Assembly (NCBI GenBank): GCA_016839745.1
Contig: JAEOTS010000099.1
Coordinates: forward strand, 1-36,280
DNA length: 36,280 nucleotides
Direction of reading: 5' to 3'
DNA from: Promethearchaeota archaeon
GTDB taxonomy: Archaea > Asgardarchaeota > Lokiarchaeia > Sigyniarchaeales > SOKP01
Part shown: positions 13,052 through 27,400 of the stretch, piece by piece
How the letters are laid out: each line of letters begins with the position of its first letter
Position numbering within the stretch: the first letter of the stretch is position 1
Translations under genes and position numbers: made by a program
The notes under the pieces: generated by a model
Database searches by the model: none
What the model saw: the letters and a program-made list of their open reading frames with translations, nothing else
What the model was told of the DNA's origin: nothing

Positions 13052-14974
13052 TTAAATCTTTAGATCATATTGGATTATTTTATTTCTTAGACGATATTGA
13101 TCAATTGCATCATAAAATGGTTTCATTTTCATTTCAAATGCGAATTTTTCATTCTTTCTTTCAGGATCTTTCCCTAACTTTTCTTTAATAGGTAAAATCA
13201 AATATTCTTCGGAGAAAACTTTTTTAAAAGTTTGTTTAAATTTCTCTTTATTTAGGTAAGGGTGATCTCCTCCAAACACAATCTCAGGATAAGTTTCCAT
13301 GAGATTATCTTTAAAATTTTTTTGTGAGAAATCCATTAGAATTTTTTCATACCCTTTGATATCTAAAGTTTTATCTTCTGATGCTAGGAGTCTATTGGAT
13401 TCGTTTTTAGAATTTTTTAAATCAGATAATAATGTTTTTCTCTGATTTTCTTTCAAAGAAGTACCAAGATTATTTATCCACTTATCGTACAAATCAAGAA
13501 TTGCTTCGGGTTCAAAATTCTCAGTTACAAAATCAGGAAAGAAAAATGCTCCATGATTTCCAATTTCTTCTTTTTTCTCATTATATTTTTGCGGATTTTC
13601 ATAGTCTAGGAAAAAGAAATAAATTCGATCTTTTAATGGCCTGTTAACTGTTAGTGCTTGTTTTGTTTTATCAATACCTCCTATATTTTCAACAGAGATT
13701 GGAAATAATAACCATTTTTTTTCAAAATAATATTTCATCAGCGTTTTTTCAGTTCCACCTTCCGTATACAAAATAAAGGGAGTAGATGCAAATAAACCAA
13801 AATCAGCTAGAACTGATTTTCTAAAATCAATCACCTCGGAGTCGTCCTTAAAATACAAATAGGGTTGTTCTTTTTCTTTATTTTTGGGCCAAGGTAAGAG
13901 GTTAATCCCGAATAGTTCCCAAGCTATTCTGGTAAAAGACTTGAGCAATAGAATCATATTAATAGAGATGTTCAAATTACCATAAAGCTCATCTAATTTA
14001 TTATCTTGTATCATCTCAAGTAAATCACCCCATTTTTCGAGGCCGTCAATCTTATTTTTCGAGGAGTGGATATAGAACCGATATATTTCATTATACATAG
14101 TTTTAAGAGTTTTTTTCTCTTCTTCTGATAAAAATTTATTCTTTTTTTCCATCAAAGAGTCTCTCCAGCTATAGTAATTCTTTAATACTAATTCTTTTTC
14201 ACCTTTATCGTATCTAGATTCTGTATTTAAAATGGGTTCAACTTTTACAGTTCCCGGAGTAATTATCCTATCCCGAAATAACATCAACGAATCCAATTTT
14301 ATCCATACTTTAAGAAAATCAAAAGACAACCAATGTGAACCAGTTAAATGTCGAAAAAAATTATCATATACTTTTTTATTCTTAATTGCTTGCTTCAAAT
14401 CGCGGTTATTTTTTCTTATCTGTTGGAATTTTTCCCTAAAAGTCCTGTCTTTAGAGTTCTTGACATTTTTATTGTAGATATCGAATCTTTTTTTAATACT
14501 ACTTTTAATCCATTTTTTTTCTTCATTCTCGATTTTTCTAAGAAATTTGTCTCTCTTTTTTATTTCTACTCCATTTTTGATATATTTCTTTTGTGAATAG
14601 TAATAAAACTTGCTATCTTTATTATAATACTTCTTAAAACTATCCCAATACAGTATGAATTGAAAGAACTGAAAAGGATGGTAAAATTTAATAAAATCTT
14701 TTTCTTTTGGTTCATTTGGAAAAAAACTGAACCTTCCTCTTCTATCTAGTTCCTGTGCATAATCTGAGTCTGCGTCAGTAATATAAATTGGTTGAAATAG
14801 ATTATTTTCTTCCAGATAATCTAATAAATAATAACATTTCGTAATTTCACCTTTATGCATCACATAGCCTAGTTCCTCAGCCCAATTAAATAAGCCTTTC
14901 CTGGAAACTAGAGAACGACGTAAAAATGGGGAAAATTTTTCCCATATATCAAAAACAGATAACCAGTCTGACAT
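13052..14974 (-). CDS. Hypothetical 640-aa protein with a C-terminal OLD-like TOPRIM domain (putative nuclease)
   Basis: ILYTEGGTE ... ENIGG ... FFFLDYE fits the TOPRIM E/G/DxD pattern; no Walker A motif seen. Confidence 0.6.
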   Translation of the reverse strand: MSDWLSVFDIWEKFSPFLRRSLVSRKGLFNWAEELGYVMHKGEITKCYYLLDYLEENNLFQPIYITDADSDYAQELDRRGRFSFFPNEPKEKDFIKFYHPFQFFQFILYWDSFKKYYNKDSKFYYYSQKKYIKNGVEIKKRDKFLRKIENEEKKWIKSSIKKRFDIYNKNVKNSKDRTFREKFQQIRKNNRDLKQAIKNKKVYDNFFRHLTGSHWLSFDFLKVWIKLDSLMLFRDRIITPGTVKVEPILNTESRYDKGEKELVLKNYYSWRDSLMEKKNKFLSEEEKKTLKTMYNEIYRFYIHSSKNKIDGLEKWGDLLEMIQDNKLDELYGNLNISINMILLLKSFTRIAWELFGINLLPWPKNKEKEQPYLYFKDDSEVIDFRKSVLADFGLFASTPFILYTEGGTEKTLMKYYFEKKWLLFPISVENIGGIDKTKQALTVNRPLKDRIYFFFLDYENPQKYNEKKEEIGNHGAFFFPDFVTENFEPEAILDLYDKWINNLGTSLKENQRKTLLSDLKNSKNESNRLLASEDKTLDIKGYEKILMDFSQKNFKDNLMETYPEIVFGGDHPYLNKEKFKQTFKKVFSEEYLILPIKEKLGKDPERKNEKFAFEMKMKPFYDAIDQYRLRNKIIQYDLKI

Positions 14975-14989
14975 TTTGTTTTAATTCGA

Positions 14990-15826
14990 TCAATTTTTCT
15001 TAAATACATTCCAAAATTCCGATGGGATTTTCCCAATATCAGTTGGGAAAAATTTAATCGTATCGGTAGTAATATTGGGGTATCCATGAAATTTAGGGGC
15101 AATTGTTTTCATTAAATCCTCTGAATAATCGTGAAAAAATGCTTTGGGATTAATTTTATACACTTTACGTAAATACCAGCGAACAAGATAAACTACGGCA
15201 TCAACTAACTGAAGTCCATTATACACTTCTGAATCAACAATAAAAGGAAAATTAATTATCCGTTCAGGATATTCATCCCATCCGTGCCCAGTACCGGTTT
15301 CCATGAATTCAATGATTTGCTCTCGTTTCTCAACATCAGTTTTGATGTTCACAGAATCCATTACTAATAAACCTCGATCTTCTTTATTAGTACTATCAAA
15401 TTCAATATAGCGGTTAATTTTTTCAACTAATAGCTCAAACGCCCATTTTTCAACATTTTCTCTCCCTGAATTCTTAAAATCTTCTTTAACAATAACAGTG
15501 CAAATGATCTTGATATATAAGCGCGTTATAAAATCATAGACTTTTGATACAACTTTGAACCATTTCTCTACATCATCCTTTAAATTCTGATAGAGCTTTC
15601 TTCTCCCATTGATGTCATCCATGTGAATCTCAAATTTAGGTGGATATTTTTTAAGATCACTTTTACTTCTGACAATACTCCATATATCTTGTTTTAAAGT
15701 TTCACTTGCACTATGAAGAAAATTTAGCCCTAGATCTTTCATTATAACTGCAGCAAGTACATAGAATTTACTCTCCTTATCCTCAAGGTTCGGAGTTCCT
15801 GATTCATCAATAAATGCAAAGTACAT
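14990..15826 (-). CDS. DUF3800 family protein (RNase H-like fold)
   Basis: N-terminal FIDESG, EIH, LVMD and C-terminal DS..YNGLQLVD signature motifs. Confidence 0.88.
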   Translation of the reverse strand: MYFAFIDESGTPNLEDKESKFYVLAAVIMKDLGLNFLHSASETLKQDIWSIVRSKSDLKKYPPKFEIHMDDINGRRKLYQNLKDDVEKWFKVVSKVYDFITRLYIKIICTVIVKEDFKNSGRENVEKWAFELLVEKINRYIEFDSTNKEDRGLLVMDSVNIKTDVEKREQIIEFMETGTGHGWDEYPERIINFPFIVDSEVYNGLQLVDAVVYLVRWYLRKVYKINPKAFFHDYSEDLMKTIAPKFHGYPNITTDTIKFFPTDIGKIPSEFWNVFKKN

Positions 15827-16156: not shown

Positions 16157-16426
16157 TCACTTATTTTCTTTATTATATTTTGGTTTATTATTAGATAATC
16201 TATTTTTTTCCACCTGTTTAGCTTTAGCTTTGGTTTTTGTAGGTGAAACCGACGCAGATGTGAAATGTTTGGTTTTATCATAATGATGTTGCTTAATCCG
16301 TTGGTTCAAGTTTTTAGTCATTCCAGTATAGACTGTCTTTCCTTGACGATTTTTAAGATTATATGCTCCTGCTGTTTTTGGTATTTCACTACGACCCTTT
16401 TTTGTATTTGAATAAGATTTTGTCAA
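16157..16426 (-). CDS. Stand-alone minimal GIY-YIG nuclease
   Basis: GAY...VYTG, R..QH, E...PKYN motifs; TTG start preceded by a GGAGG Shine-Dalgarno. Confidence 0.88.
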   Translation of the reverse strand: MTKSYSNTKKGRSEIPKTAGAYNLKNRQGKTVYTGMTKNLNQRIKQHHYDKTKHFTSASVSPTKTKAKAKQVEKNRLSNNKPKYNKENK

Positions 16427-16464
16427 CCCTAATACCTCCGTATTATTTTATTATTTATAAAAAA

Positions 16465-16513
16465 GATCATTTTTTCATATTTATAGATCGAAAAAAAATG
16501 ATCCATATTTATA
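16465..16513. promoter_or_regulatory. Candidate operator/divergent promoter: 11-bp inverted repeat plus a 10-bp direct repeat
   Basis: GATCATTTTTT (16465-16475) and AAAAAATGATC (16493-16503); CATATTTATA at 16476 and 16504; TATA-like boxes nearby. Confidence 0.45.
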
Positions 16514-16569
16514 TATATTCGTCTAGATTATATAAATACTCGCACGACAAAAAAAGGAGGTTTGCAGAA

Positions 16570-17424
16570 ATGATCAACGAAGAAAGAAAAGTTATGATAA
16601 TACCTATCGGTCTAGAGTTAGATCGAGCTATTTTTGGGATTTCCAAGTATAACCCCGATATCATCTATGTGATATACAGTAGAAAGGAAGAAGAAATTCT
16701 GATAGATAAAGTGGATGTCGAATCCAAAAGATTTATGGAACTCTTTGTTGAAAAGATTAGGGGATTGTGGAAATATGAAATATTAGAGACTGATGTAACT
16801 AATCTATCAAAATGCACTGATCTTCTAATGGAGATCTTCACTAAAGAATTACAAGAATCAGAAGATTGTGTTTTTTATATCAATATTTCAACGTCATCAA
16901 AGATCTTCTCTTTTTCATCTTTTTATCTCGCAGGAAAGTATAGTGGAAATGTATTACTTTTTTATGTGAAACCGGCCGAATATCTAATGGTTGAATTTAG
17001 CGCGAAATTTCAAGATTTAGTTTCTAAACTTAGAAATAGCGAAGATGTCGATATGGATTATCTAACTGAAACAGAAAAGATGATTGAAAGATACATAGAA
17101 CACGGTTGGACCTCTGGAACTTTCAGAATAATCGAAATCCCTTACTATAAAATATCAAAATATCCCGATTATGAAATAAATTTAATGGGAATTATGAATG
17201 ACAACAAAAATAAATATCCTGATGGTTTCACAATAGAAAATCTTTTAGAGCTAAATAGAGAGGTTCAAATAAAAAGCAATAAAATTAAATTAAATTATCA
17301 TCTCACGGAATTAGAAAGGCAAAGTCTTATCGAAAACCATCCAAAGAATCGGAAGAAACATGTCAAATTACAGAAGTCAGGCGAAATTTTTCTTGAAACA
17401 ATCGCTAAGTTGTTAGAAAATTAA
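16570..17424 (+). CDS. CARF-like (DUF6293/Csa3-type) domain plus C-terminal winged-HTH transcriptional regulator
   Basis: IIPIGLELDR, DIIYVI, YINISTSSKI, FYVKP then LNYHLTELERQSLI...KLQKSG. The ATG at 16570 follows GGAGG, so the ORF-track start at 16363 is over-extended. Confidence 0.78.
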   Translation: MINEERKVMIIPIGLELDRAIFGISKYNPDIIYVIYSRKEEEILIDKVDVESKRFMELFVEKIRGLWKYEILETDVTNLSKCTDLLMEIFTKELQESEDCVFYINISTSSKIFSFSSFYLAGKYSGNVLLFYVKPAEYLMVEFSAKFQDLVSKLRNSEDVDMDYLTETEKMIERYIEHGWTSGTFRIIEIPYYKISKYPDYEINLMGIMNDNKNKYPDGFTIENLLELNREVQIKSNKIKLNYHLTELERQSLIENHPKNRKKHVKLQKSGEIFLETIAKLLEN

Positions 17425-17940: not shown

Positions 17941-20721
17941 ATGACAGAATATAACCACCAAATAATTGAGAAAAAATGGCAAGAAAGGTGGGAAAAGGAT
18001 AAAATTTTCGAAGTGAGAGATGACAACTCAAAAGAGAAATATTATGTGCTTGAAATGTATCCCTACCCAAGTTCAGACCTCCATATGGGTCACCTTCGTA
18101 ATTATTCAATTGGCGACTCTTTTGCTCGATTCAAACGAATGAAAGGTTTTAATGTCCTATACCCAATGGGTTACGATAGCTACGGTCTACCCGCAGAAAA
18201 CGCAGCGATTGACCACGGAGAGGATCCTGAGGAGTGGACAAACTCTAATATGGCATCAATTCAAAAACAACAGAAACGAATCGGTCTTTCGTATGATTGG
18301 ACCCGTATGATCTATTCTCATGACCCTAATTATTACAAGTGGGACCAATGGTTTTTCCTAAAAATGTACGAAAAAGGTTTGGCTTACAGACAGGAAAGTT
18401 ACGTGAATTGGTGCCCAAAATGCGTAACTGTGCTAGCTAACGAACAGGTTCTAAGTGGCAAATGTTGGCGATGCAGTTCGGAGGTCGATCAAAAATTTCT
18501 GACTCAATGGTTTTTAAAAATCCGGGATTATGCCGAAGAACTTTTGGACGGTTTGAATACGGTTGACTGGCCTGAAAAAGTCAAAACAATGCAACGAAAT
18601 TGGATTGGAAGATCAGAAGGAACGATAATAAAATTCCCAATTGTAGGTGAAGAAAGAACCATCGATATATTTACCACTCGACCAGATACATTGTACGGCG
18701 TCACATTTATGGTATTTGCCCCCGAGCATCCTTGGGTTAAAAAATGGGTAGAAGGGACCAATTATGAATCCGATTTTCAAAACCTTTACGCAGAAACAAC
18801 TAAACAAAATAAATTTCAGAGAACTGATATCGATGTTGAGAAGAAAGGGATATTCATTGGAAAACACGCCATTAACCCGCTAACCAAAGAAGAGATACCT
18901 ATATATATTGGCAATTTTGTTATTTACGAATATGGTGCGGGGGCTGTAATGGCTGTGCCTGGACACGATCAACGGGATTTTGAATTTGCTAAGAAATACG
19001 ATATCCCAATAAAAGTAGTTATTCAACCGTTTGAATACGAACTAAATGCGGAAAAAATGACCAGAGCCTACGAAGAGGACGGAACTTTAGTAAACTCTGA
19101 TGAATTTGATGGTATGGAAAACCGATCCGCGATAAAAGCTATTTCTGAAAAACTTGCGTCAATCGATTTGGGACAGGAAACTGTGAATTACAAACTAAGA
19201 GATTGGCTCATATCCCGACAACGCTATTGGGGGTGCCCAATACCAATTATATACTGCGATAGCTGTGAAATTGTGCCCGTTCCTTATGAAAACCTACCTG
19301 TAGAATTACCTAAAGATGTAAAATTCACGGGAAAAGGAAATCCTTTGAAAACGAGTGAATCTTTTGTTAAAACCTCGTGCCCAAAATGTGGGAATCAAGC
19401 AAGACGGGAAACCGATACCATGGATACTTTCGTAGATAGTTCTTGGTATTTCTTCCGATATTGTGACCCAAATGAGGAAAACTTACCATACAAGAAGGAA
19501 ATTGCCGATTACTGGATGAATGTTGACCAGTATGTGGGTGGGATCGAACATTCGATTCTCCATTTAATGTACGCACGTTTCTTTACCCGAGTCGCTCGTG
19601 ATCTTGGACTTCAATCGTTTAACGAGCCCTTCCAGCGACTACTGACCCAAGGTATGGTTAATAAATCACATCCTTACTGTTCTACATGTGAAGCTTTTGC
19701 TATGAAAGCTGACATGACGAGTGAAAGCTGTAAAAGATGTGGAACTAAATATATTTTAAAAAGCGTTAAGATGAGTAAGAGTTACGGCAATACGATAGAT
19801 CCAATTGGGATGATGAACAAATACGGAGCAGACGCAGCTCGATTTTTTATTCTTTTTGGCGCGAGTCCTCAATCCGGTTTGGAATGGTCTGACGAGGGCA
19901 TTGGTTTTGCTTTTAAATTTATTAGAAACTTTTTTTACCTCCTAACAGAACCAATTCAAATTGAAAGGGAGGAACATACTTTAAGTGATCAGTTAATTCT
20001 TTTTAATTTGCATAAAACTATTAAACTTGTTTCAGAATATTATGAGAACATTGCCTTACGAGACGCAATTAATCATATAATCCAATTTACTTCAGAGCTT
20101 AGAAAATATAAAGAAAATAGCGGACAAAAGGAAGTTTTTAACGAGTGTGTCGAAAAATTACTATTGCTATTTCATCCAATCGCTCCACATGTCACAGAAG
20201 AATTGTGGGAGCTAAAGGGAAAAGCAGGATATGTTACTTTATCACCCTGGCCTTCATACGATGCTGATATTTTGACTCAAGAAAACGAATTTAAATGGAA
20301 ACTCATGAATAAGATAATAGATGATATTGATAGCATAAGACAAGCAACCAAAATTGGTAAACTGAACGAAATTACAATCATTGTAGCTGACGAGTGGAAA
20401 TTTAAGTTCTACGCACAACTGTTAGAGTTAATCGAGAAATCTACAAACCAAGGGGTCATCACAAAAGAACTGATGAAGCACGAAGAATACAAAATTCATA
20501 GTAAATTCGTGGTTCAAACGATAAAAAAAGTGTTGAACAACATAGGAAAATTTTCAAAAGTAACCCTTTTAGCAGGCGAAGAATTTCAATTCTTTGAGGA
20601 CATTACCTCGATTATTGAGAGACGATACGATTGTAAGGTCACGGTATTACTTGAAAAAAATTCCAACGAAACAAAAGCAATTCAAGCGCTACCCGGAAAA
20701 CCAGCTTTAATCATAAAATAA
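17941..20721 (+). CDS. leuS: Leucine--tRNA ligase
   Basis: YPYPS..LHMGH, editing-domain FTTRPDT and [35 protein letters not shown]. Confidence 0.98.
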
Positions 20722-20722
20722 T

Positions 20723-23700
20723 TCATTCTTCTTTTGTATTTTCTTCAGATTTCACATAAACAAAAGCGGTTCCGGAGCAATATCCAATTCTATCTAAAAA
20801 TATTTTATATGTTTCATTAGTCGTTTTAGAAGAGTTAATTTTTTTTATTTTAGTAAAGGTATTATTTCGAAAAACTCTCTCCAATTTTTTAATTAGTGAT
20901 GTTGTTATATTTTCATTTTTTAACCCGTCAAGAGTTTTTAGTAAGAGAACTTCTGATAGGTTTGTTTTTCTTTTTATTTGAGTTGCTATGTGCGTTGCGT
21001 TTTCAGGGACAATTCCTTTATTACTTAAATCTCTCAGTGAAATACCGTGAGTTTTTTGAAGCTCTAAATTTAATTTTCTTATAAGAGCGTGTGTATTTGC
21101 AGCAGTTTTAATATCGCTGGTTGTATAATCGATTTCGGGTAAGTTGTCAAAGATATGTTTTAATTTCTCAAAATTAGAAGAACCTCGAATTACCATTGAA
21201 TAAAGTTTCTTTGAGTTTGGCCTAGTAGAAGGTGGATCATGTACACTAACGCTCATGATAACTCCCAATTTTTTCATAAGCAGATTTAAACCAAACACTA
21301 ATCTTCTTGAAGTAGTCTCAAAATTAAGATCAAAAGTACCTCCCTTAGTTCGGTAATCTCTTTCTGATCCATCACCTTTAAAATAGCTTGAAATAAAACC
21401 TTTCTCACAATCTGGCGTTGAATTATACAAAAACGATGGTAGTTCTTTCAAATATGAGTATGCATGCTTTAAACCTAAACCCTGAGTAAATATTGATTTA
21501 GCTAGCTTAGTTTTTGTCCTTAATTCATAACATTCATTATAAATACCGTTTTCACATTTAGGACATATATTTTGATTACCATTTTCAATTGTTTTGGACC
21601 CACAATTTTTACACTCTTTAACTCTTCTTGCTATTATTTGAAACTCTAGCCCAAATACTTCTTTAACTATTTTTTGAAGCTTTTGAATATATTCATAATC
21701 CGTGCTAACAGAAATTACTGTCGCGGGTTGATATTTGGATGGAAAAGTTCCTTCAGCTTCATATTGACCTAATATCGCTCCTAACTTTGCATTTTTTTTA
21801 ACGAAGCGATACGCTTTCTTATCGAATTGTTCGATGTATTGAACATTGTTTTTAGAAATCATCATCCCACAATTTATTAAATCTAAGGGTTCGTTATTTG
21901 GGTTGATTTTTAAAATTCTTGGCATTAAGATTGGCATTCCAATCTTTAGCTCACTTCCTTTAATTTCAATTATGTTACAGTCATTGTCTATAGTGAAAAG
22001 AAACTGGTCTGGAGTAATTATTACTGATCCATGGTTACAAATAATTTCTAAGGATTCCTGAGGTTTTGTTTTCATAAATCGACGAATATTCACTTTTTCT
22101 GGTTGTAGTTTGTTTGAAATCCCAAGAATTTGAAACTCCTCCATGTTTTTTAAAAATTCTGGATTTTCGAGATCTTTAATGAAAACACATTGATATTGAT
22201 TAGTTTTTGTTTTGAACAACAAGATATATTCATGCGATTGGATTTTCGGATCAAGTGGTAAATCTTCTCGAAAATATTTTCTTTTATACATTTTCATCCA
22301 TCCTTCATAAGATAAATCCGCACCAAAATATTTAGCATATTTATTATTCTGGAAGAACTTTTTTATATGACGCCGAATTGTCGTCTCTCCATAAGTATAG
22401 CCTTGATGATTTTCTAAATTTTTTCTAATAGCAGAGATGGATCCTCCTACTTCTCGATCCTGATAAATTTTTATCCATTTAATAACATCCTCATCGGTGG
22501 CTGTTTGCGTGCTCTTACGATTTCCATGTTTTACTTTAAATTCTTCATAAATCAAGCTATTCTGCTTAAAATATTTTTTCACAAAATATGTCATATCATT
22601 AAATTGATTCGGAATACCAATTTTTCGATTTAAGTGTTTATTGAAATCCCGAATAAAATTAAAAACCTTTGGCCACGATCCGCCATAATACTTTAGTTTA
22701 AATAATTCGATCCAAAATTCTATATCTCCATCAGAATATTTTGAAGAAATCGTATGCTTGTTCTTTTTCTGCAAGTAGGTTTTATCTTGAACGTCAAATA
22801 TAATCTTCTTGAATTTACTTCCAAGTTGTTCAATTATTTTAACTAAATCTCTTGGCGTAAAATTTAGAATTCTAAGAGTTAATTGGTTCTTGCTTGCTTT
22901 CAAAATTCGATTTAATTGCTTTTTTGGAGGGAATTGGGTAAGGAAATGGTTGAGTAATTGCTTCAGTTGCGATTTTTCCAATCTTTGGTGCGATAAATAG
23001 CGTTTAATTGCTCTTATATTGGTGAATAATATTATGTGTTCTGGATTTTTTTCGTAAAGAGTTTTAATTAGTCCTTTTAGTTCTACTTTTTCTTCTTGAG
23101 AGAGTAGCTCAGTTTGTTCTTTTTTGTATAATTCTTGGAACCTTGCTGTTAGTTCGTCGAGTTCGTTATAATCATCCACGATTTCTGTTAGATCCTCCTT
23201 CATTTGGGGGTGTAGTCTTTCTCCTGCATCTTCTTTTACCCAGTTTGAGAGATATTCTAGCCATTCTTTTTCTTTTTCTTGTTCGATGGTATGTTCGTTA
23301 GATTCCGTTTCGTTGGGAGCATCTTGCTCGATTTCTGTTATCTGCTCGAGAGTCTCTTCTAATTCTTGTTGAGGGTCATCTATTTCCCTACGTTTAAATT
23401 CATTAATTTCTAATTCTTCATTTAAATCTTCTAATTCAAGTTCTTCTTGATAAACGAACACGGTTTCAATCTCGTTGCTATCCTGTTCCTGAATCCTTTC
23501 AATTTCCTCTTCTGGATATGCCTCTATCTCCATTTCTTCTAGATCGTTCCCTACTTGTTCTTCTTCGTGCTTCACCTCTCGAATATCCAGATTTTCTTCA
23601 TTAAGTTCTTCGTCAATTTTAGTGCGTTCGAGATCGAACTCTGTAAATTCTTTTGTAGTCTTTTGATGATTTACATCTTCTTCGCTACTGGGAAAATTAT

Positions 23701-24517
23701 CCTCAGTAGAGTAAATTTGTGGATTAACCTCTTTAAATTGTTCTTGTTCTATTGTTTCTTCGTTTAATGCTGGCTCATGGTCGGGATCAATCAAGTCATC
23801 CCGATTCTCTTGTTCTAAATCATTTTCAGCGGCTATAGGTTCTGAGTCTTGTTCCTCACTACCAGTTTTATTTAATTCAGCTTGTTGTTGTTCGAGTTGA
23901 ATTCTTTCTTTCTCTTGTTCTAAAAATTGTTCCAATTCAGAAGGCTCATTTTCCAGAATGTCTGCTTTATTTTCTTCTCCTTGGTTTTCCCGTTCCTTTT
24001 CTAACTGTGCTTGAGCGTATTCCCTAAGATAGGCAATCATTTGGTTTTCCGTGATTAAAATAGTGTTCATAGTTTGAGCATATTGATTTTCGAATTCTCC
24101 GGAGTATCCTTCTTGTCCATAATTATCTCCACGCTCGTAGGGATCATATTGCTCAACATCACCTTCCAAATCGTTTTGGTCAGATTCTTGCTCAGATTCT
24201 TCCTCAGGGTCGTTATGCTCGAACTCATCCCGCTCTTCATTTCCTTCAGTTGCGTCACTAACATCAAGATCAGTTTGTTCAGATTCTTTCCAATCGATCT
24301 CATTCCAAATAGATTCTTGCTCTTCATCACTATTCACTTCGCTCCAATCGATATCACTCCACTTGTCATCGCCACCTGTTTCTAGTTCATCATCACTACT
24401 TTGTTCTTCATTATCATCGCTGTCTGATTCTTGTTCATCATCACTAATTTCGTCTTCATCACTCTTTTTCTCTTCTGATTTAAATTCCTCATCCGTATTC
24501 TCTCTCTCAAATTCCAT
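20723..24517 (-). CDS. 1264-aa multidomain protein: acidic low-complexity N-terminus, helical domain, tandem HTH-like repeats, C-terminal intein-derived Hint plus double LAGLIDADG endonuclease with a Zn ribbon
   Basis: About 410 D/E-rich residues; intein block B-like SVIITPDQFLF and ELKIGMPILMPR; LGQYEAEG and ISSYFKGDG; TTSRRL; CKNC...CPKC. Confidence 0.8.
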   Translation of the reverse strand: MEFERENTDEEFKSEEKKSDEDEISDDEQESDSDDNEEQSSDDELETGGDDKWSDIDWSEVNSDEEQESIWNEIDWKESEQTDLDVSDATEGNEERDEFEHNDPEEESEQESDQNDLEGDVEQYDPYERGDNYGQEGYSGEFENQYAQTMNTILITENQMIAYLREYAQAQLEKERENQGEENKADILENEPSELEQFLEQEKERIQLEQQQAELNKTGSEEQDSEPIAAENDLEQENRDDLIDPDHEPALNEETIEQEQFKEVNPQIYSTEDNFPSSEEDVNHQKTTKEFTEFDLERTKIDEELNEENLDIREVKHEEEQVGNDLEEMEIEAYPEEEIERIQEQDSNEIETVFVYQEELELEDLNEELEINEFKRREIDDPQQELEETLEQITEIEQDAPNETESNEHTIEQEKEKEWLEYLSNWVKEDAGERLHPQMKEDLTEIVDDYNELDELTARFQELYKKEQTELLSQEEKVELKGLIKTLYEKNPEHIILFTNIRAIKRYLSHQRLEKSQLKQLLNHFLTQFPPKKQLNRILKASKNQLTLRILNFTPRDLVKIIEQLGSKFKKIIFDVQDKTYLQKKNKHTISSKYSDGDIEFWIELFKLKYYGGSWPKVFNFIRDFNKHLNRKIGIPNQFNDMTYFVKKYFKQNSLIYEEFKVKHGNRKSTQTATDEDVIKWIKIYQDREVGGSISAIRKNLENHQGYTYGETTIRRHIKKFFQNNKYAKYFGADLSYEGWMKMYKRKYFREDLPLDPKIQSHEYILLFKTKTNQYQCVFIKDLENPEFLKNMEEFQILGISNKLQPEKVNIRRFMKTKPQESLEIICNHGSVIITPDQFLFTIDNDCNIIEIKGSELKIGMPILMPRILKINPNNEPLDLINCGMMISKNNVQYIEQFDKKAYRFVKKNAKLGAILGQYEAEGTFPSKYQPATVISVSTDYEYIQKLQKIVKEVFGLEFQIIARRVKECKNCGSKTIENGNQNICPKCENGIYNECYELRTKTKLAKSIFTQGLGLKHAYSYLKELPSFLYNSTPDCEKGFISSYFKGDGSERDYRTKGGTFDLNFETTSRRLVFGLNLLMKKLGVIMSVSVHDPPSTRPNSKKLYSMVIRGSSNFEKLKHIFDNLPEIDYTTSDIKTAANTHALIRKLNLELQKTHGISLRDLSNKGIVPENATHIATQIKRKTNLSEVLLLKTLDGLKNENITTSLIKKLERVFRNNTFTKIKKINSSKTTNETYKIFLDRIGYCSGTAFVYVKSEENTKEE

Positions 24518-24539: not shown

Positions 24540-26486
24540 TTAAGAGTTGTAATCTTCCGCCGTTTTCATCAAATAGCGTTCAGTATTCGTCATAATTAAC
24601 GCGTATCTGCCTGGTAAATTTAGGAGCATTTCTCTCTCGTTCATAGAACCAGTGAATATTTGGGGGCTTGGATATCCTAATTTGAACAAGATCTTCTGTC
24701 TTGCAGAATCGACGGCCGAAGGAAGTAATGAATGCGGTTTTTGATCCGCCTTAATGATTCCTAAACCTTTTTTTCTACTTTCATTAGCGAACCTGCTAAA
24801 AGAAGAGTTGGTTTTATTTTTCATTATGAATTCCGGAGATTCAGGGTGTTTATCACCTGGTTCTCCTAACAATCGGTGTGCCTCATCTAAAACTAGGATA
24901 TATTTCAGCATATTGGATTTTTCACGATCGATGGGGATTAAAACATCAATCATGTGTAAAATCATCATTCCTATTAAGTGTTGTTCTTCCTCCGTGCATT
25001 TGGTAAAATCAAGCAATACGGTCTCTCCTTCCATCCATTTATTAAACCAATTTGGAATATTCTTCCATTCTCCATCAAGGAGATTGAGCGTATTCATTAA
25101 ATCTTCCCGATAAAACAGTTCGTTAATCCGTCTTTTAAAAGTAGCTCGAACATGTTGTTTATATTCCGGTTCCCACGTTTTTGCTTTCATATTCTCATCA
25201 ACGCAATCAAAAAATTCCTTAAGATTGTCTGGAAATTTGTGAAATTTATTATAACAGATTCTAAGTGTCTCAGAAAATATAGTTGGTCCAATATGTTTTA
25301 ATCCTAAACAGGAAGCAAAGACATTACTCGTTGTTTTGATTGAAATCATAGTTCTTTCAGAAGGAGTAATATAGGGTATTCTCAATTTTTCAGAAGGAAA
25401 CTTAAAAACTTCAGCCATCGGATAATCATCCTCAAGGAATGATGTTGCGAAGTTAATGATTAATATACCCACATCTGGTCGTTTTGATATTATCTGATGT
25501 AGAATTAATTTAATCAATGTTGATTTCCCGGTTCCTTGCAACCCAAAAATGTCTAAATGAGTTACAAGACTATCCAATCCAATCAAACCTATCTCAGTGC
25601 TTAAAACACCTTTGTTCATCTTATCTCCGATATACAGAAAATTAGGATCGTTTTTAGAAAGCTCTAAATTAAAAGTGTTCCGGTTTTCCAAAATGGGTGG
25701 TTTTTTTAGATCCATTCCTTGGGGGATCTCGAAATCAATCATGTTGGGATTAATAAAGTTAGGCATCATTTCGATTGGTAGGTGTCCATATGTTGGTTTT
25801 TCGGGGAACACATCCGAAGTTAGAATTTTCCTCCAAAAAACGGGAGACCGTTCTTGGAAGGTTGCCTTCTGATACGGTGGTATAGAAATATCAGAAATGA
25901 AGTATCTTAAGACCGCTCTTTCGTTTATTCTTTGTTGTCTAGCATCCATAGAGAATTTAGGATTTGCATTTAAGCTTATAAATATCCTAATCATATACTT
26001 CAGTGGATCCGGATTTATGTGTAAATTGTCCTTTTTCCATAATATAAATAGATGTGCATCTAATTTCCTCTGTGGTGTTTTGTAATAATTGATTATTTTT
26101 CTAAGCAAGTGTATACGTATCGGAGGATTAGAGGGTAAGATAAGCTCGAAAATTTTTCTGTTGATATCTAAAAACCCCAAGTAAATTGGATCGACACTCA
26201 CACGTCCATCCAATCCCCTATACTTCTCCTGTAAATTATATAACAAAGCGACTCCAAATTCATTGGCTAATTCATAATCTTCACTAAAAAGAAAAAAATC
26301 CCAACAAAAACTACTTCCTAACTTGAATTCTACACCATAAGTTAAATTTTCTCCAAAAGGGTCATATAACCATGATACATCCATTATTTGCTTTACTTCA
26401 TTATCATGAAATCTCATTAATTCTTCTTGTTCACATGGTAAAGCTTGAGTTATACTGATTTTTGATCGATATCCTATAAGTTCCAT
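24540..26486 (-). CDS. HerA/FtsK/VirB4-superfamily ATPase (DUF87-like) with an unknown N-terminal domain
   Basis: HLDIFGLQGTGKST (Walker A), LVLDEAH (Walker B), ESRKKG...ADQKP (arginine finger and Gln motif). Confidence 0.88.
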   Translation of the reverse strand: MELIGYRSKISITQALPCEQEELMRFHDNEVKQIMDVSWLYDPFGENLTYGVEFKLGSSFCWDFFLFSEDYELANEFGVALLYNLQEKYRGLDGRVSVDPIYLGFLDINRKIFELILPSNPPIRIHLLRKIINYYKTPQRKLDAHLFILWKKDNLHINPDPLKYMIRIFISLNANPKFSMDARQQRINERAVLRYFISDISIPPYQKATFQERSPVFWRKILTSDVFPEKPTYGHLPIEMMPNFINPNMIDFEIPQGMDLKKPPILENRNTFNLELSKNDPNFLYIGDKMNKGVLSTEIGLIGLDSLVTHLDIFGLQGTGKSTLIKLILHQIISKRPDVGILIINFATSFLEDDYPMAEVFKFPSEKLRIPYITPSERTMISIKTTSNVFASCLGLKHIGPTIFSETLRICYNKFHKFPDNLKEFFDCVDENMKAKTWEPEYKQHVRATFKRRINELFYREDLMNTLNLLDGEWKNIPNWFNKWMEGETVLLDFTKCTEEEQHLIGMMILHMIDVLIPIDREKSNMLKYILVLDEAHRLLGEPGDKHPESPEFIMKNKTNSSFSRFANESRKKGLGIIKADQKPHSLLPSAVDSARQKILFKLGYPSPQIFTGSMNEREMLLNLPGRYALIMTNTERYLMKTAEDYNS

Positions 26487-26490
26487 TGAG

Positions 26491-27249
26491 TCACCATTGA
26501 GCTTCTTCTCTTGTTTTTATGGGTGTAACCCGCCTTCGAGTCAGAAATTTTGTTTTTGTTTTTTTTGTAATAAAACCTTGTTTTCTTCTCAGATGATGGA
26601 GATAAACAGTTTTTACTCCCATAGTAGCGGCTTTAAAACCATAGTAAGCGACGAGAATTGCTATGTAAGTTACAATTTCGTGAAATACTTGAATTTGATA
26701 TGAAGTGATAACTAACCAGACGATAGCCACCGATAATAGTAATAAAGTTATTTGATAAAGAGAGTATCTCCAATCGAAATGTATCGTTCCAACAATGGAT
26801 ACTAAGTCCGCAAACGAGGGTGCTGCGCTTAAAACAAGCGATATCATTATAAAGATGTAAATGTAAAAGATAACGACATCCAGACAGGGATTGAGCAAGT
26901 GTTCCCATAACATAAAAAAGAGCCAGAAGGAGATGTATAGTGGGGCTAATCCAATTAACACCGCTTGTAGAAATGTCAACTTCACGTAGTCCGTTAAATC
27001 GACTCTTCCACCGTATTTTAAGCCGAAATTGGCATCTGCATCAGCGCGCTTTACAATCTTAATGCTCCTTATGCGAGTGTTTGTGAGAACGCACATTAAG
27101 GCGTGGGAGAGTTCGTGGATTAGGATCCCTACTACAGCTAGGACTTGAAAAAATTTATCAATTGGGTTAGGTGCCCACTTCAATAGAACATAGGACAGGA
27201 CAACTGACGCCAGTGCAAATAAAACCATAAATACGATCTCTTCGAACAT
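26491..27249 (-). CDS. Membrane-embedded HExxH zinc metalloprotease (M50-like)
   Basis: LIHELSHA, GG.V, LAP, APSFAD motifs among several TM helices. The likely start is the ATG at 27249 rather than 27333. Confidence 0.78.
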   Translation of the reverse strand: MFEEIVFMVLFALASVVLSYVLLKWAPNPIDKFFQVLAVVGILIHELSHALMCVLTNTRIRSIKIVKRADADANFGLKYGGRVDLTDYVKLTFLQAVLIGLAPLYISFWLFFMLWEHLLNPCLDVVIFYIYIFIMISLVLSAAPSFADLVSIVGTIHFDWRYSLYQITLLLLSVAIVWLVITSYQIQVFHEIVTYIAILVAYYGFKAATMGVKTVYLHHLRRKQGFITKKTKTKFLTRRRVTPIKTREEAQW

Positions 27250-27400
27250 TGTAATAAACCCTAATAGTGTTTGTTCTTTACAAAGATATAATTTCGATAT
27301 ATATAAAAGGAAAATTTGAGGAATTTTCACCATAATTATATATTTATATTAAGTTGATTATTATAAAAATAGAATAAAAGACAAATTTATACGCCGCACC

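Follow-up and report, generated by a model that had tools for sequence, protein, structure and literature searches.

What becomes of an intein that has lost its splicing residues and no longer interrupts a host protein? The gene P0001 raises this question. It lies in a 36,280-nt stretch from a Promethearchaeota archaeon of the Lokiarchaeia (contig JAEOTS010000099.1 of assembly GCA_016839745.1, positions 1 to 36,280), hereafter the window, which has a G+C content of ~30% and whose homologues are annotated as Candidatus Lokiarchaeota or Promethearchaeota. P0001 is an open reading frame (ORF) of 1264 aa (20723-24517, minus strand) composed of an acidic tract, a helical N-terminal domain and an intein-derived nuclease. 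It converges with leuS (17941-20721, plus strand), the leucyl-tRNA synthetase (LeuRS) gene and its presumed host gene, whose stop codon lies 1 nt from that of the nuclease gene. The initial annotation of this locus had read the intein-derived part as an independent archaeal domestication of an intein, similar to yeast HO, into a permanent site-specific nuclease or DNA-binding domain. We favour another answer, with a probability of roughly 0.68: P0001 is the nuclease of an archaeal, independently evolved, free-standing homing element resembling the WHO elements of yeasts.

The intein scaffold of P0001

The intein-derived module covers residues 758-1257 (20747-22246, minus strand), as delimited by Pfam, AlphaFold2 and Foldseek, and consists of a Hint fold split around a two-motif LAGLIDADG endonuclease and a helical region of the DNA-recognition type. 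Hidden Markov model comparison, the check proposed by the initial annotation, recovered the module from the last 508 residues of P0001 alone, which match the Pfam families LAGLIDADG_3 (PF14528, E-value 1e-11) and Intein_splicing (PF14890, 38.0 bits against a cut-off of 35.8). The AlphaFold2 model of the domain, calculated from a 29-row family alignment, has a predicted local distance difference test score (pLDDT) of 87.6 and a predicted template modelling score of 0.88. Foldseek placed the TliVMA intein (PDB 7qss) as the best PDB match of this model, with an E-value of 3e-22, followed by the endonuclease-bearing inteins PI-PkoII, PhoVMA and PI-PfuI, and then PI-SceI. A sequence search of the PDB with the same domain returned nothing beyond a weak match to PI-PkoII. 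Given the Pfam matches, the confident model and the endonuclease-bearing archaeal inteins as best PDB matches, the intein scaffold in P0001 is real and complete. It shares the architecture of Hint, LAGLIDADG and DNA-recognition parts with TliVMA (7qss), PI-PkoII (2cw7), PI-PfuI (1dq3) and P0032, an intein in an anaerobic ribonucleotide reductase, but it lacks their N-terminal nucleophile, the histidine of the TxxH motif, the terminal HN and the C-extein, and is not inserted in a host protein.

Indeed, the sequence preceding the module is not a conserved protein interrupted in frame. It comprises a D/E-rich low-complexity tract (residues ~1-430; 23228-24517, minus strand), which varies in length and is missing from the 750-aa family members, and a family-specific, all-helical domain (residues ~545-757; 22247-22885, minus strand) with a helix-turn-helix-like stretch, GETTIRRHIKKFF. 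The helical domain is conserved in clade A, to which P0001 belongs, and the N-terminal parts of the family proteins differ from clade to clade. It was modelled with a pLDDT of 78 and matches HTH_12 weakly (E-value 0.005), and a PDB fold search with it gave no confident match; it is presumed to be an extra DNA-binding module.

Splicing and endonuclease residues

The state of the splicing residues was read from an alignment to P0032, the closest true intein (E-value 5e-64), which sits in a 1162-aa protein named anaerobic ribonucleoside-triphosphate reductase (NrdD) from a Promethearchaeota metagenome-assembled genome. Its junctions are PAE|SLGSNELV...IYAHN|STSG-RFA, so placed because intein-less NrdDs have four residues between PAE and RFA. 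The serine at position 1 of P0032 corresponds to K758 of P0001, the first residue of a degenerate block A, KIQSHEYILL (residues 758-767; 22217-22246, minus strand). Block B reads TNSH in P0032 and TPDQ in P0001 (residues 835-838; 22004-22015, minus strand), with Q838 in place of the histidine. The terminal HN has become K1256-S1257 at the end of the degenerate blocks F and G, TYKIFLD (1236-1242)...AFVYVKS (1251-1257; together 20747-20812, minus strand), and the +1 serine is a glutamate. Only seven residues (EENTKEE) separate VYVKS from the stop codon, leaving no C-extein. The assertion of the initial annotation that every splicing position is substituted is therefore borne out. The motifs it named lie at or near the positions it gave them, and its choice of the lysine as position 1 is correct, whereas its start coordinate of 22250 is 4 nt off the actual 22246. 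S761, the other candidate for position 1, was ruled out by the extein length in intein-less NrdDs.

Across all non-splicing family members, position 1 is K, E, I, T or D. The loss is graded: several members of clade B keep [ST]xxH, and clade B proteins stop exactly at the last intein residue (...IYIKN followed by the stop codon), whereas clade A and a third clade, C, are further degraded. A C827-x-H829-G830 motif ahead of block B is invariant in clades A and B. Altogether, P0001 has the Hint fold with an embedded LAGLIDADG endonuclease and lacks the Cys or Ser (rarely Ala) at position 1, the TxxH motif, and the HN followed by Cys, Ser or Thr at +1. Judged by these residues, the domain is intein-derived and predicted to be unable to splice.

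The endonuclease has fared differently. LAGLIDADG motif 1, LGAILGQYEAEGT (residues 912-924; 21746-21784, minus strand), retains the catalytic acid E922 (21752-21754), and motif 2, GFISSYFKGDGSE (residues 1040-1052; 21362-21400, minus strand), retains D1049 (21371-21373) within YFKGDGS. Both acids, correctly recognized as kept by the initial annotation, are invariant in clades A and B, in a family reaching down to 33% identity; in the true intein P0032, the second motif is degenerate (GKK). The endonuclease of P0001 thus looks to be in working order, and DNA cleavage is its predicted activity.

In addition, the first LAGLIDADG half of P0001 bears a CxxC...CxxC zinc-ribbon insert (C969-C988; 21554-21613, minus strand), identified by alignment and weak zinc-ribbon Pfam matches. 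This insert is confined to the leuS-associated clade A and missing from clade B, which is associated with the gene nrdD, and from P0032. The helical N-terminal domain is likewise found in the leuS clade only. Both are plausible re-targeting modules.

Selection on a sporadic family

A search of 1.84 billion cluster representatives yielded 11 clusters at E<1e-30, with true inteins only beyond them, so that the domain forms ~11 clusters (at 50% identity) in Promethearchaeota. A word-index search retrieved 29 homologues with 33-80% identity over the last 508 residues. Pairwise ratios of nonsynonymous to synonymous substitution (dN/dS) over residues 757-1256 range from 0.17 to 0.34, by an approximate method and among mutually related pairs, with lower values in the LAGLIDADG part (0.13-0.28) than in the Hint part (0.18-0.34). 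The reading frame is intact in all 11 clade A copies. The initial annotation had named purifying selection as a point to check and a unique, neutrally decaying fusion as an outcome that would overturn it; with ~11 clusters, intact copies throughout clade A and these ratios, neutral decay is excluded and the domain is under purifying selection.

Selection does not coincide with fixation, as the P0001 gene is not present at one syntenic place across its lineage. Besides the window's own genome, only 2 of the 36 same-genus genomes searched have an intact copy, and one more (G019) holds a decayed remnant with three stop codons, the only pseudogene among the 36. A further 24 genomes from the order and class yielded no comparable gene.

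Relics and mosaic history of leuS

The clade A gene follows downstream of leuS wherever a locus has a flank on that side, namely in the window, L016, L017 and L055-L061 (loci are labelled L and genomes G, G000 being the window's own genome and C68 its contig). L016 and L057-L061 show the same directly convergent order as the window. In 30 same-genus genomes without the gene, the order is a radical-SAM gene, leuS, a 285-aa gene and a ~150-aa gene.

A tblastn search with LeuRS revealed extra pieces of leuS beyond the element. They begin at codon 538 in L057, at codon 537 in L058, and at codons 538 and 539 in L060, which has two. All four long relics start right after GGIEH, at |AILHLLYARFF, with unrelated AT-rich DNA upstream. 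The duplicated segment is ~390 codons long and has diverged to 57-73% amino acid identity. The site at which all of them start corresponds to codons 533-542 of the window's leuS (GGIEH|SILHL; 19537-19566, plus strand), the presumed homing (cleavage) site. Shorter relics, consisting of the last 30-65 codons, occur in L016, L017, L018 and L056 and match the leuS ends of individual empty genomes at 92-98% identity.

No second leuS fragment was found within the window; in its genome the relic sits on another contig, C127 (C127:3439-3629), and comprises the last 62 LeuRS residues and the stop codon. It lies ~1.7 kb upstream of the 285-aa gene (C127:5327-6181) on the same strand, with one opposite-strand ORF between them. 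The relic shares 84% amino acid and 87% nucleotide identity with the leuS of G014, compared to 66% nucleotide identity with the 3' end of the window's own leuS. G014 and G015 are the closest empty relatives by the 5' part of leuS and by the neighbouring genes. In the tree of codons 150-532, the window, L017, L055 and L056 are sister to a group with G014 and G015. In the tree of codons 545-926, by contrast, the five element-bearing alleles (window, L017, L055, L056 and L016) form a single clade with 100% support, which has a long branch and lies far from G014 and G015, in the opposite half of the tree. Since the 5' and 3' trees conflict and the C127 relic resembles G014 rather than the resident leuS, the working leuS of this genome appears to be a chimera. 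Its 3' part (codons 538-926; 19552-20721, plus strand), marked by identity profiles and trees as foreign to the genome's lineage, would travel with the nuclease gene, and the original 3' end would survive as the relic. At the DNA level, the leuS site shows no simple difference between occupied and empty alleles.

Two further kinds of insert were observed at leuS. A 640-aa gene without Pfam match, 73-74% conserved, lies upstream of leuS in the window (13052-14974, minus strand) and between leuS and a 30-codon leuS relic in three other loci (L017:7161-9083, L055:3049-4971, L056:6336-8258), a position that resembles a second insertion at the 3' end of leuS. Within leuS itself, 30 nt are inserted between the codons for PMGYD and GLPAEN in L046, L047, L048, L042, L016 and L052 (genomes G006, G023, G024, G035, G009 and G036), and are missing from the window's leuS. 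The insert forms a 9-bp hairpin, GTATTTCTC-AATAA-GGGAAATAC, with an in-frame stop codon in the loop in most genomes and none in G036; its removal restores D-S-F-G. L016 and L052 have a second insert of ~11 codons with a stop codon, between NYYK and WDQWFF. Mini-introns are one possible explanation of these inserts in an essential gene, bypassed segments another.

Proposed homing at leuS and comparison with WHO elements

By analogy with WHO elements, we propose that the nuclease would cut empty leuS alleles at the conserved GGIEH|AILHL coding site near codon ~538, and that an element-bearing copy would serve as the repair template. Along with the antisense nuclease gene and cargo that varies, repair would then bring in a leuS 3' part of foreign origin (codons 538-926), and the resident 3' part would be displaced downstream as a relic; in other donor copies, such a relic could provide the far arm of homology. 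In L057 and L058 the element is complete, measures 7.2 kb and contains leuS codons 538-926, the antisense nuclease gene and a gene with HD-CE and GHKL domains.

WHO elements are known from Torulaspora and Lachancea yeasts (Coughlan et al. 2020, PMC7282813; Osborne et al. 2026, bioRxiv 10.64898/2026.08.13.744650). Such an element pairs an essential gene with a neighbouring LAGLIDADG gene that is derived from an intein and has no exteins; it supplies a new 3' part for the essential gene, and old 3' parts stay behind as relics whose start is the cleavage site. The two halves of the host gene, 5' and 3', differ in phylogeny, and repeated homing builds up clusters (PMC7282813; 10.64898/2026.08.13.744650). 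In the searched literature, homing elements that restore their host gene with a spare 3' part and without splicing are reported from budding yeasts only, where they explain the origin of HO (PMC7282813; 10.64898/2026.08.13.744650).

The Lokiarchaeal loci show the same defining features: an extein-less, intein-derived LAGLIDADG gene beside a conserved host gene, a common relic start, and split 5' and 3' histories. In both systems the endonuclease has neither exteins nor splicing, its free-standing gene lies just downstream of an essential host gene, sometimes antisense, and the element carries a replacement 3' part while old 3' parts persist as relics from one start site. Discordant host-gene trees and clustered copies, some of them pseudogenes, are also common to both. 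They differ in several respects. The nearest relative of the archaeal element is an archaeal NrdD intein and not VDE. The host genes are leuS and nrdD here, compared to FBA1 in yeast. The archaeal protein has an N-terminal helical domain and an internal zinc ribbon instead of a C-terminal zinc finger. Archaeal elements hold cargo genes, encoding a HerA-like ATPase or an HD-CE/GHKL protein, and one archaeal clade still adjoins the host gene of the ancestral intein. Moreover, the archaeal element is known from its sequence, and its cleavage is a prediction. There is no sign of common descent with yeast WHO or HO, as the C-terminal zinc finger is absent and the nearest relatives are archaeal inteins. 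By this comparison, the archaeal element would work like WHO but is no member of the WHO gene family.

The resemblance to HO of Saccharomyces is of another kind. HO is also a non-splicing, extein-less intein relative that retained LAGLIDADG motifs and has an added DNA-binding domain, but it is fixed and has a host function, mating-type switching, whereas the archaeal gene is sporadic, has pseudogene copies and is tied to the replacement of a host-gene 3' part. Judged by analogy, such replacement is the signature of WHO elements, the selfish relatives of HO, and not of HO itself.

Endonuclease genes that act on their neighbours are familiar from other systems. The free-standing homing endonuclease genes of T-even phages (intronless homing) and those endonuclease genes of fungal mitochondria that carry along a duplicate of a gene's 3' end likewise lie by their target gene, and the flanking gene sequence is co-converted or replaced. 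Their products are GIY-YIG, HNH or plain LAGLIDADG proteins, not whole inteins.

A full-text literature search of incomplete coverage found WHO elements in yeasts only, and nothing comparable for archaea or bacteria. What is new here is that the nearest relative is an NrdD intein and that one clade adjoins nrdD, together with the graded series of residues, the common relic start near codon ~538 and the displaced leuS end within the genome. If the homing model is correct, the same design was built independently in Asgard archaea from a different intein, and the route out of the intein life style would be a general one. The archaeal family offers stages that are missing in yeast, namely a true intein and, at one host gene with it, relatives that do not splice. 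Under this model it would moreover add long-site nucleases of a new family, their predicted target lying in a universally conserved motif of leuS, supply a mechanism for mosaic housekeeping genes and adjacent island insertion in archaea, and give indirect evidence for DNA exchange between Lokiarchaeal cells.

Relationship to the NrdD intein

P0032, the answer to the question of the closest true intein and host gene posed by the initial annotation, shares 43-47% identity with clade B, compared to 34% with the window's domain and clade A. In the domain tree it is grouped with clades B and C with 100% support. Clade B genes lie tail-to-tail with an intein-less nrdD (PF13597, E-value 1e-139) in L019, L020, L064, L065 and L067-L070, often overlapping its stop codon. 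In L064 the gene lies between nrdD and a radical-SAM (NrdG-like) gene, two genes that are adjacent in the empty locus L078. In L021 the nuclease gene abuts, with its 3' end, a decayed 3' relic of nrdD that contains stop codons; the relic begins somewhere between codons ~544 and 571, within ~15 codons of the intein insertion site at codon ~554. The case for nrdD thus consists of this adjacency, the one decayed relic and the relationship to the intein. From it we infer that the element lineage started from an intein in nrdD. One clade would have stayed beside intein-less nrdD, and the window's clade would have gained the zinc ribbon and helical domain and come to lie at leuS. Because the nearest relative of the P0001 domain is an archaeal NrdD intein, its origin appears independent of yeast HO, and to this extent the initial annotation was right. 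A broader proposal is tentative, and we consider it considerably less probable than the homing model itself. In it, a Loki-type Asgard lineage records the whole path from intein to free-standing homing element, from a splicing NrdD intein through non-splicing copies by intein-less nrdD to a nuclease re-aimed at leuS via the zinc ribbon and helical domain. Its members would move multi-gene cargo islands of defence or DNA-transfer type (at least 15 kb here) by nuclease-driven gene conversion, with the displaced host 3' end as far arm. Among homing elements of the 'third class', it would count as a fourth case of independent origin, with no earlier one in prokaryotes.

The insertion site of P0032 is itself unusual. 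In L019-L106, the four residues at this site (nrdD codons ~552-557, L064 numbering) are hypervariable (SESASN, SEQAAN, SEHTAR, AESSSG and others), between invariant flanking residues, and no other spot of the protein, elsewhere 80-85% conserved, varies as much. Escape from homing nucleases could be the cause. Many NrdD family genes have large in-frame inserts near residues ~178 and ~220, sites unlike that of P0032, with open frames of ~1190 aa in G014:C36, G015:C211 and G144:C15, and of ~1660-1690 aa in G125:C21 and G083:C45; these inserts are presumably other inteins. The only other LAGLIDADG_3 match in the window's genome belongs to a true, LAGLIDADG-bearing intein that interrupts the P-loop of UvrB (G000:C100:21457-24705, locus L001; GATGTGK|S...VFVHN|TFTV).

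Assessment of the homing model and its alternatives

Several observations weigh against homing at leuS and nrdD. We infer the leuS cleavage site at codon ~538 from the relic boundaries only, and the boundary in L057 and L058 may be shared by descent instead of stemming from separate events. In L017, L055 and L056, the nuclease gene is separated from leuS by the 640-aa gene. Mosaicism of leuS extends to empty genomes (between G008/G002 and G032/G011, identity is 83% for the 5' part but 87% for the 3' part), so that some of the tree conflict stems from general recombination. The relic of the window's genome is on C127, a contig that the assembly does not join to C68, and a contig overlap test failed. 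The last 127 nt of C68 (36154-36280) are identical to the last 127 nt of C191, an assembly-graph junction or repeat at the far side of the island. The non-syntenic island beyond leuS measures at least 15 kb, which is large for homing co-conversion. At nrdD, a comparison of 5' and 3' identity between element-bearing and empty alleles gave no clear signal, and the site is marked by the one decayed relic only.

The alternative that survives best, though we consider it unlikely, is the one closest to the initial annotation: a domesticated, HO-like host nuclease, which together with its neighbours would form an antivirus defence or DNA-processing module, leuS being merely an island hotspot. The gene 22 nt upstream of P0001 encodes a HerA/DUF87-like ATPase (24540-26486, minus strand; Pfam DUF87; PADLOC mad8, 7.7e-16, with matches to HerA models too), and the next one a 280-aa membrane protein (26491-27333, minus strand), so that the three co-oriented genes look operonic. 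An ATPase with 26% identity precedes the clade B gene in L019 and L020 and overlaps its start. Purifying selection on the nuclease gene fits this explanation, as do the defence-type surroundings, which include CARF and DUF3800 genes upstream of leuS and the HD-CE/GHKL gene (with an HATPase_c domain; L057:598-3255, L058:951-3374), a cargo gene of defence-like appearance. Yet the ATPase stands beside the nuclease gene in just 3 of ~25 loci that have upstream flank, P0001 itself has no PADLOC match, and the gene occurs in few genomes of the genus. Because most loci have other, unrelated neighbours, the ATPase and the membrane protein are probably cargo and not core parts. Domestication also leaves the common start of the leuS relics and the displaced original 3' end unexplained. 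It is unsupported because the gene is sporadic (2 of 36 genomes) and always lies by a conserved host gene with a duplicated and replaced 3' part.

Distinctly less probable is an ordinary site-specific integration of islands that restores its target gene, with the nuclease as a passenger. It would account for the size of the island, for accessory genes on both sides of leuS and for the general mosaicism of leuS in the genus. On the 5' side, a CARF-domain gene (16363-17424, plus strand; PADLOC CARF3, 2.7e-16; Pfam HFX_2341_N) and a DUF3800 gene (14990-15826, minus strand) lie between the radical-SAM gene and leuS, and are taken as a second accessory insert because empty relatives have only ~130 nt there. 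But neither the ORFs of the window nor the complete elements in L057 and L058 contain an integrase or recombinase family, which leaves the LAGLIDADG protein as the only candidate for a DNA-cutting or mobility enzyme, and no tRNA gene that could serve as an att site was found within the window. The ~390-codon duplication, with its 57-73% identity, is unlike a short identical att repeat, and the same protein family lies by nrdD, the host of the closest intein.

We give little credence to a catalytically dead, LAGLIDADG-derived DNA-binding regulator in the manner of WhiA: the helical domain and zinc ribbon would suit it, as would a nuclease activity that is only predicted, but both metal-binding acids are invariant in clades A and B, whereas P0032 lost one, and neither the patchy distribution nor the host-gene fragments would be expected. 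Least probable is a Hint domain that still processes itself and so frees the N-terminal part, perhaps through an N-terminal cut like those made by Hedgehog or bacterial intein-like domains; the Hint fold is fully preserved and constrained and C827-x-H829-G830 is invariant, but position 1 is a lysine, the block B histidine a glutamine, and terminal asparagine and C-extein are absent.

Other genes beside the nuclease

Members of both clades have an ORF of 203-214 aa without Pfam family directly upstream of the nuclease gene and overlapping its start (L056:2530-3141, L018:320-931, L065:266-907, L066:3-584, L069:209-853), with 38% identity between the clades. It is missing from the window, and the possibility that the 203-aa ORF had been fused into P0001 was rejected, as it is not fused. 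In L020, the last 60 residues of the HerA-like ATPase are encoded a second time in a short stretch upstream of the ATPase gene (L020:3979-4159), which suggests duplication and replacement there too.

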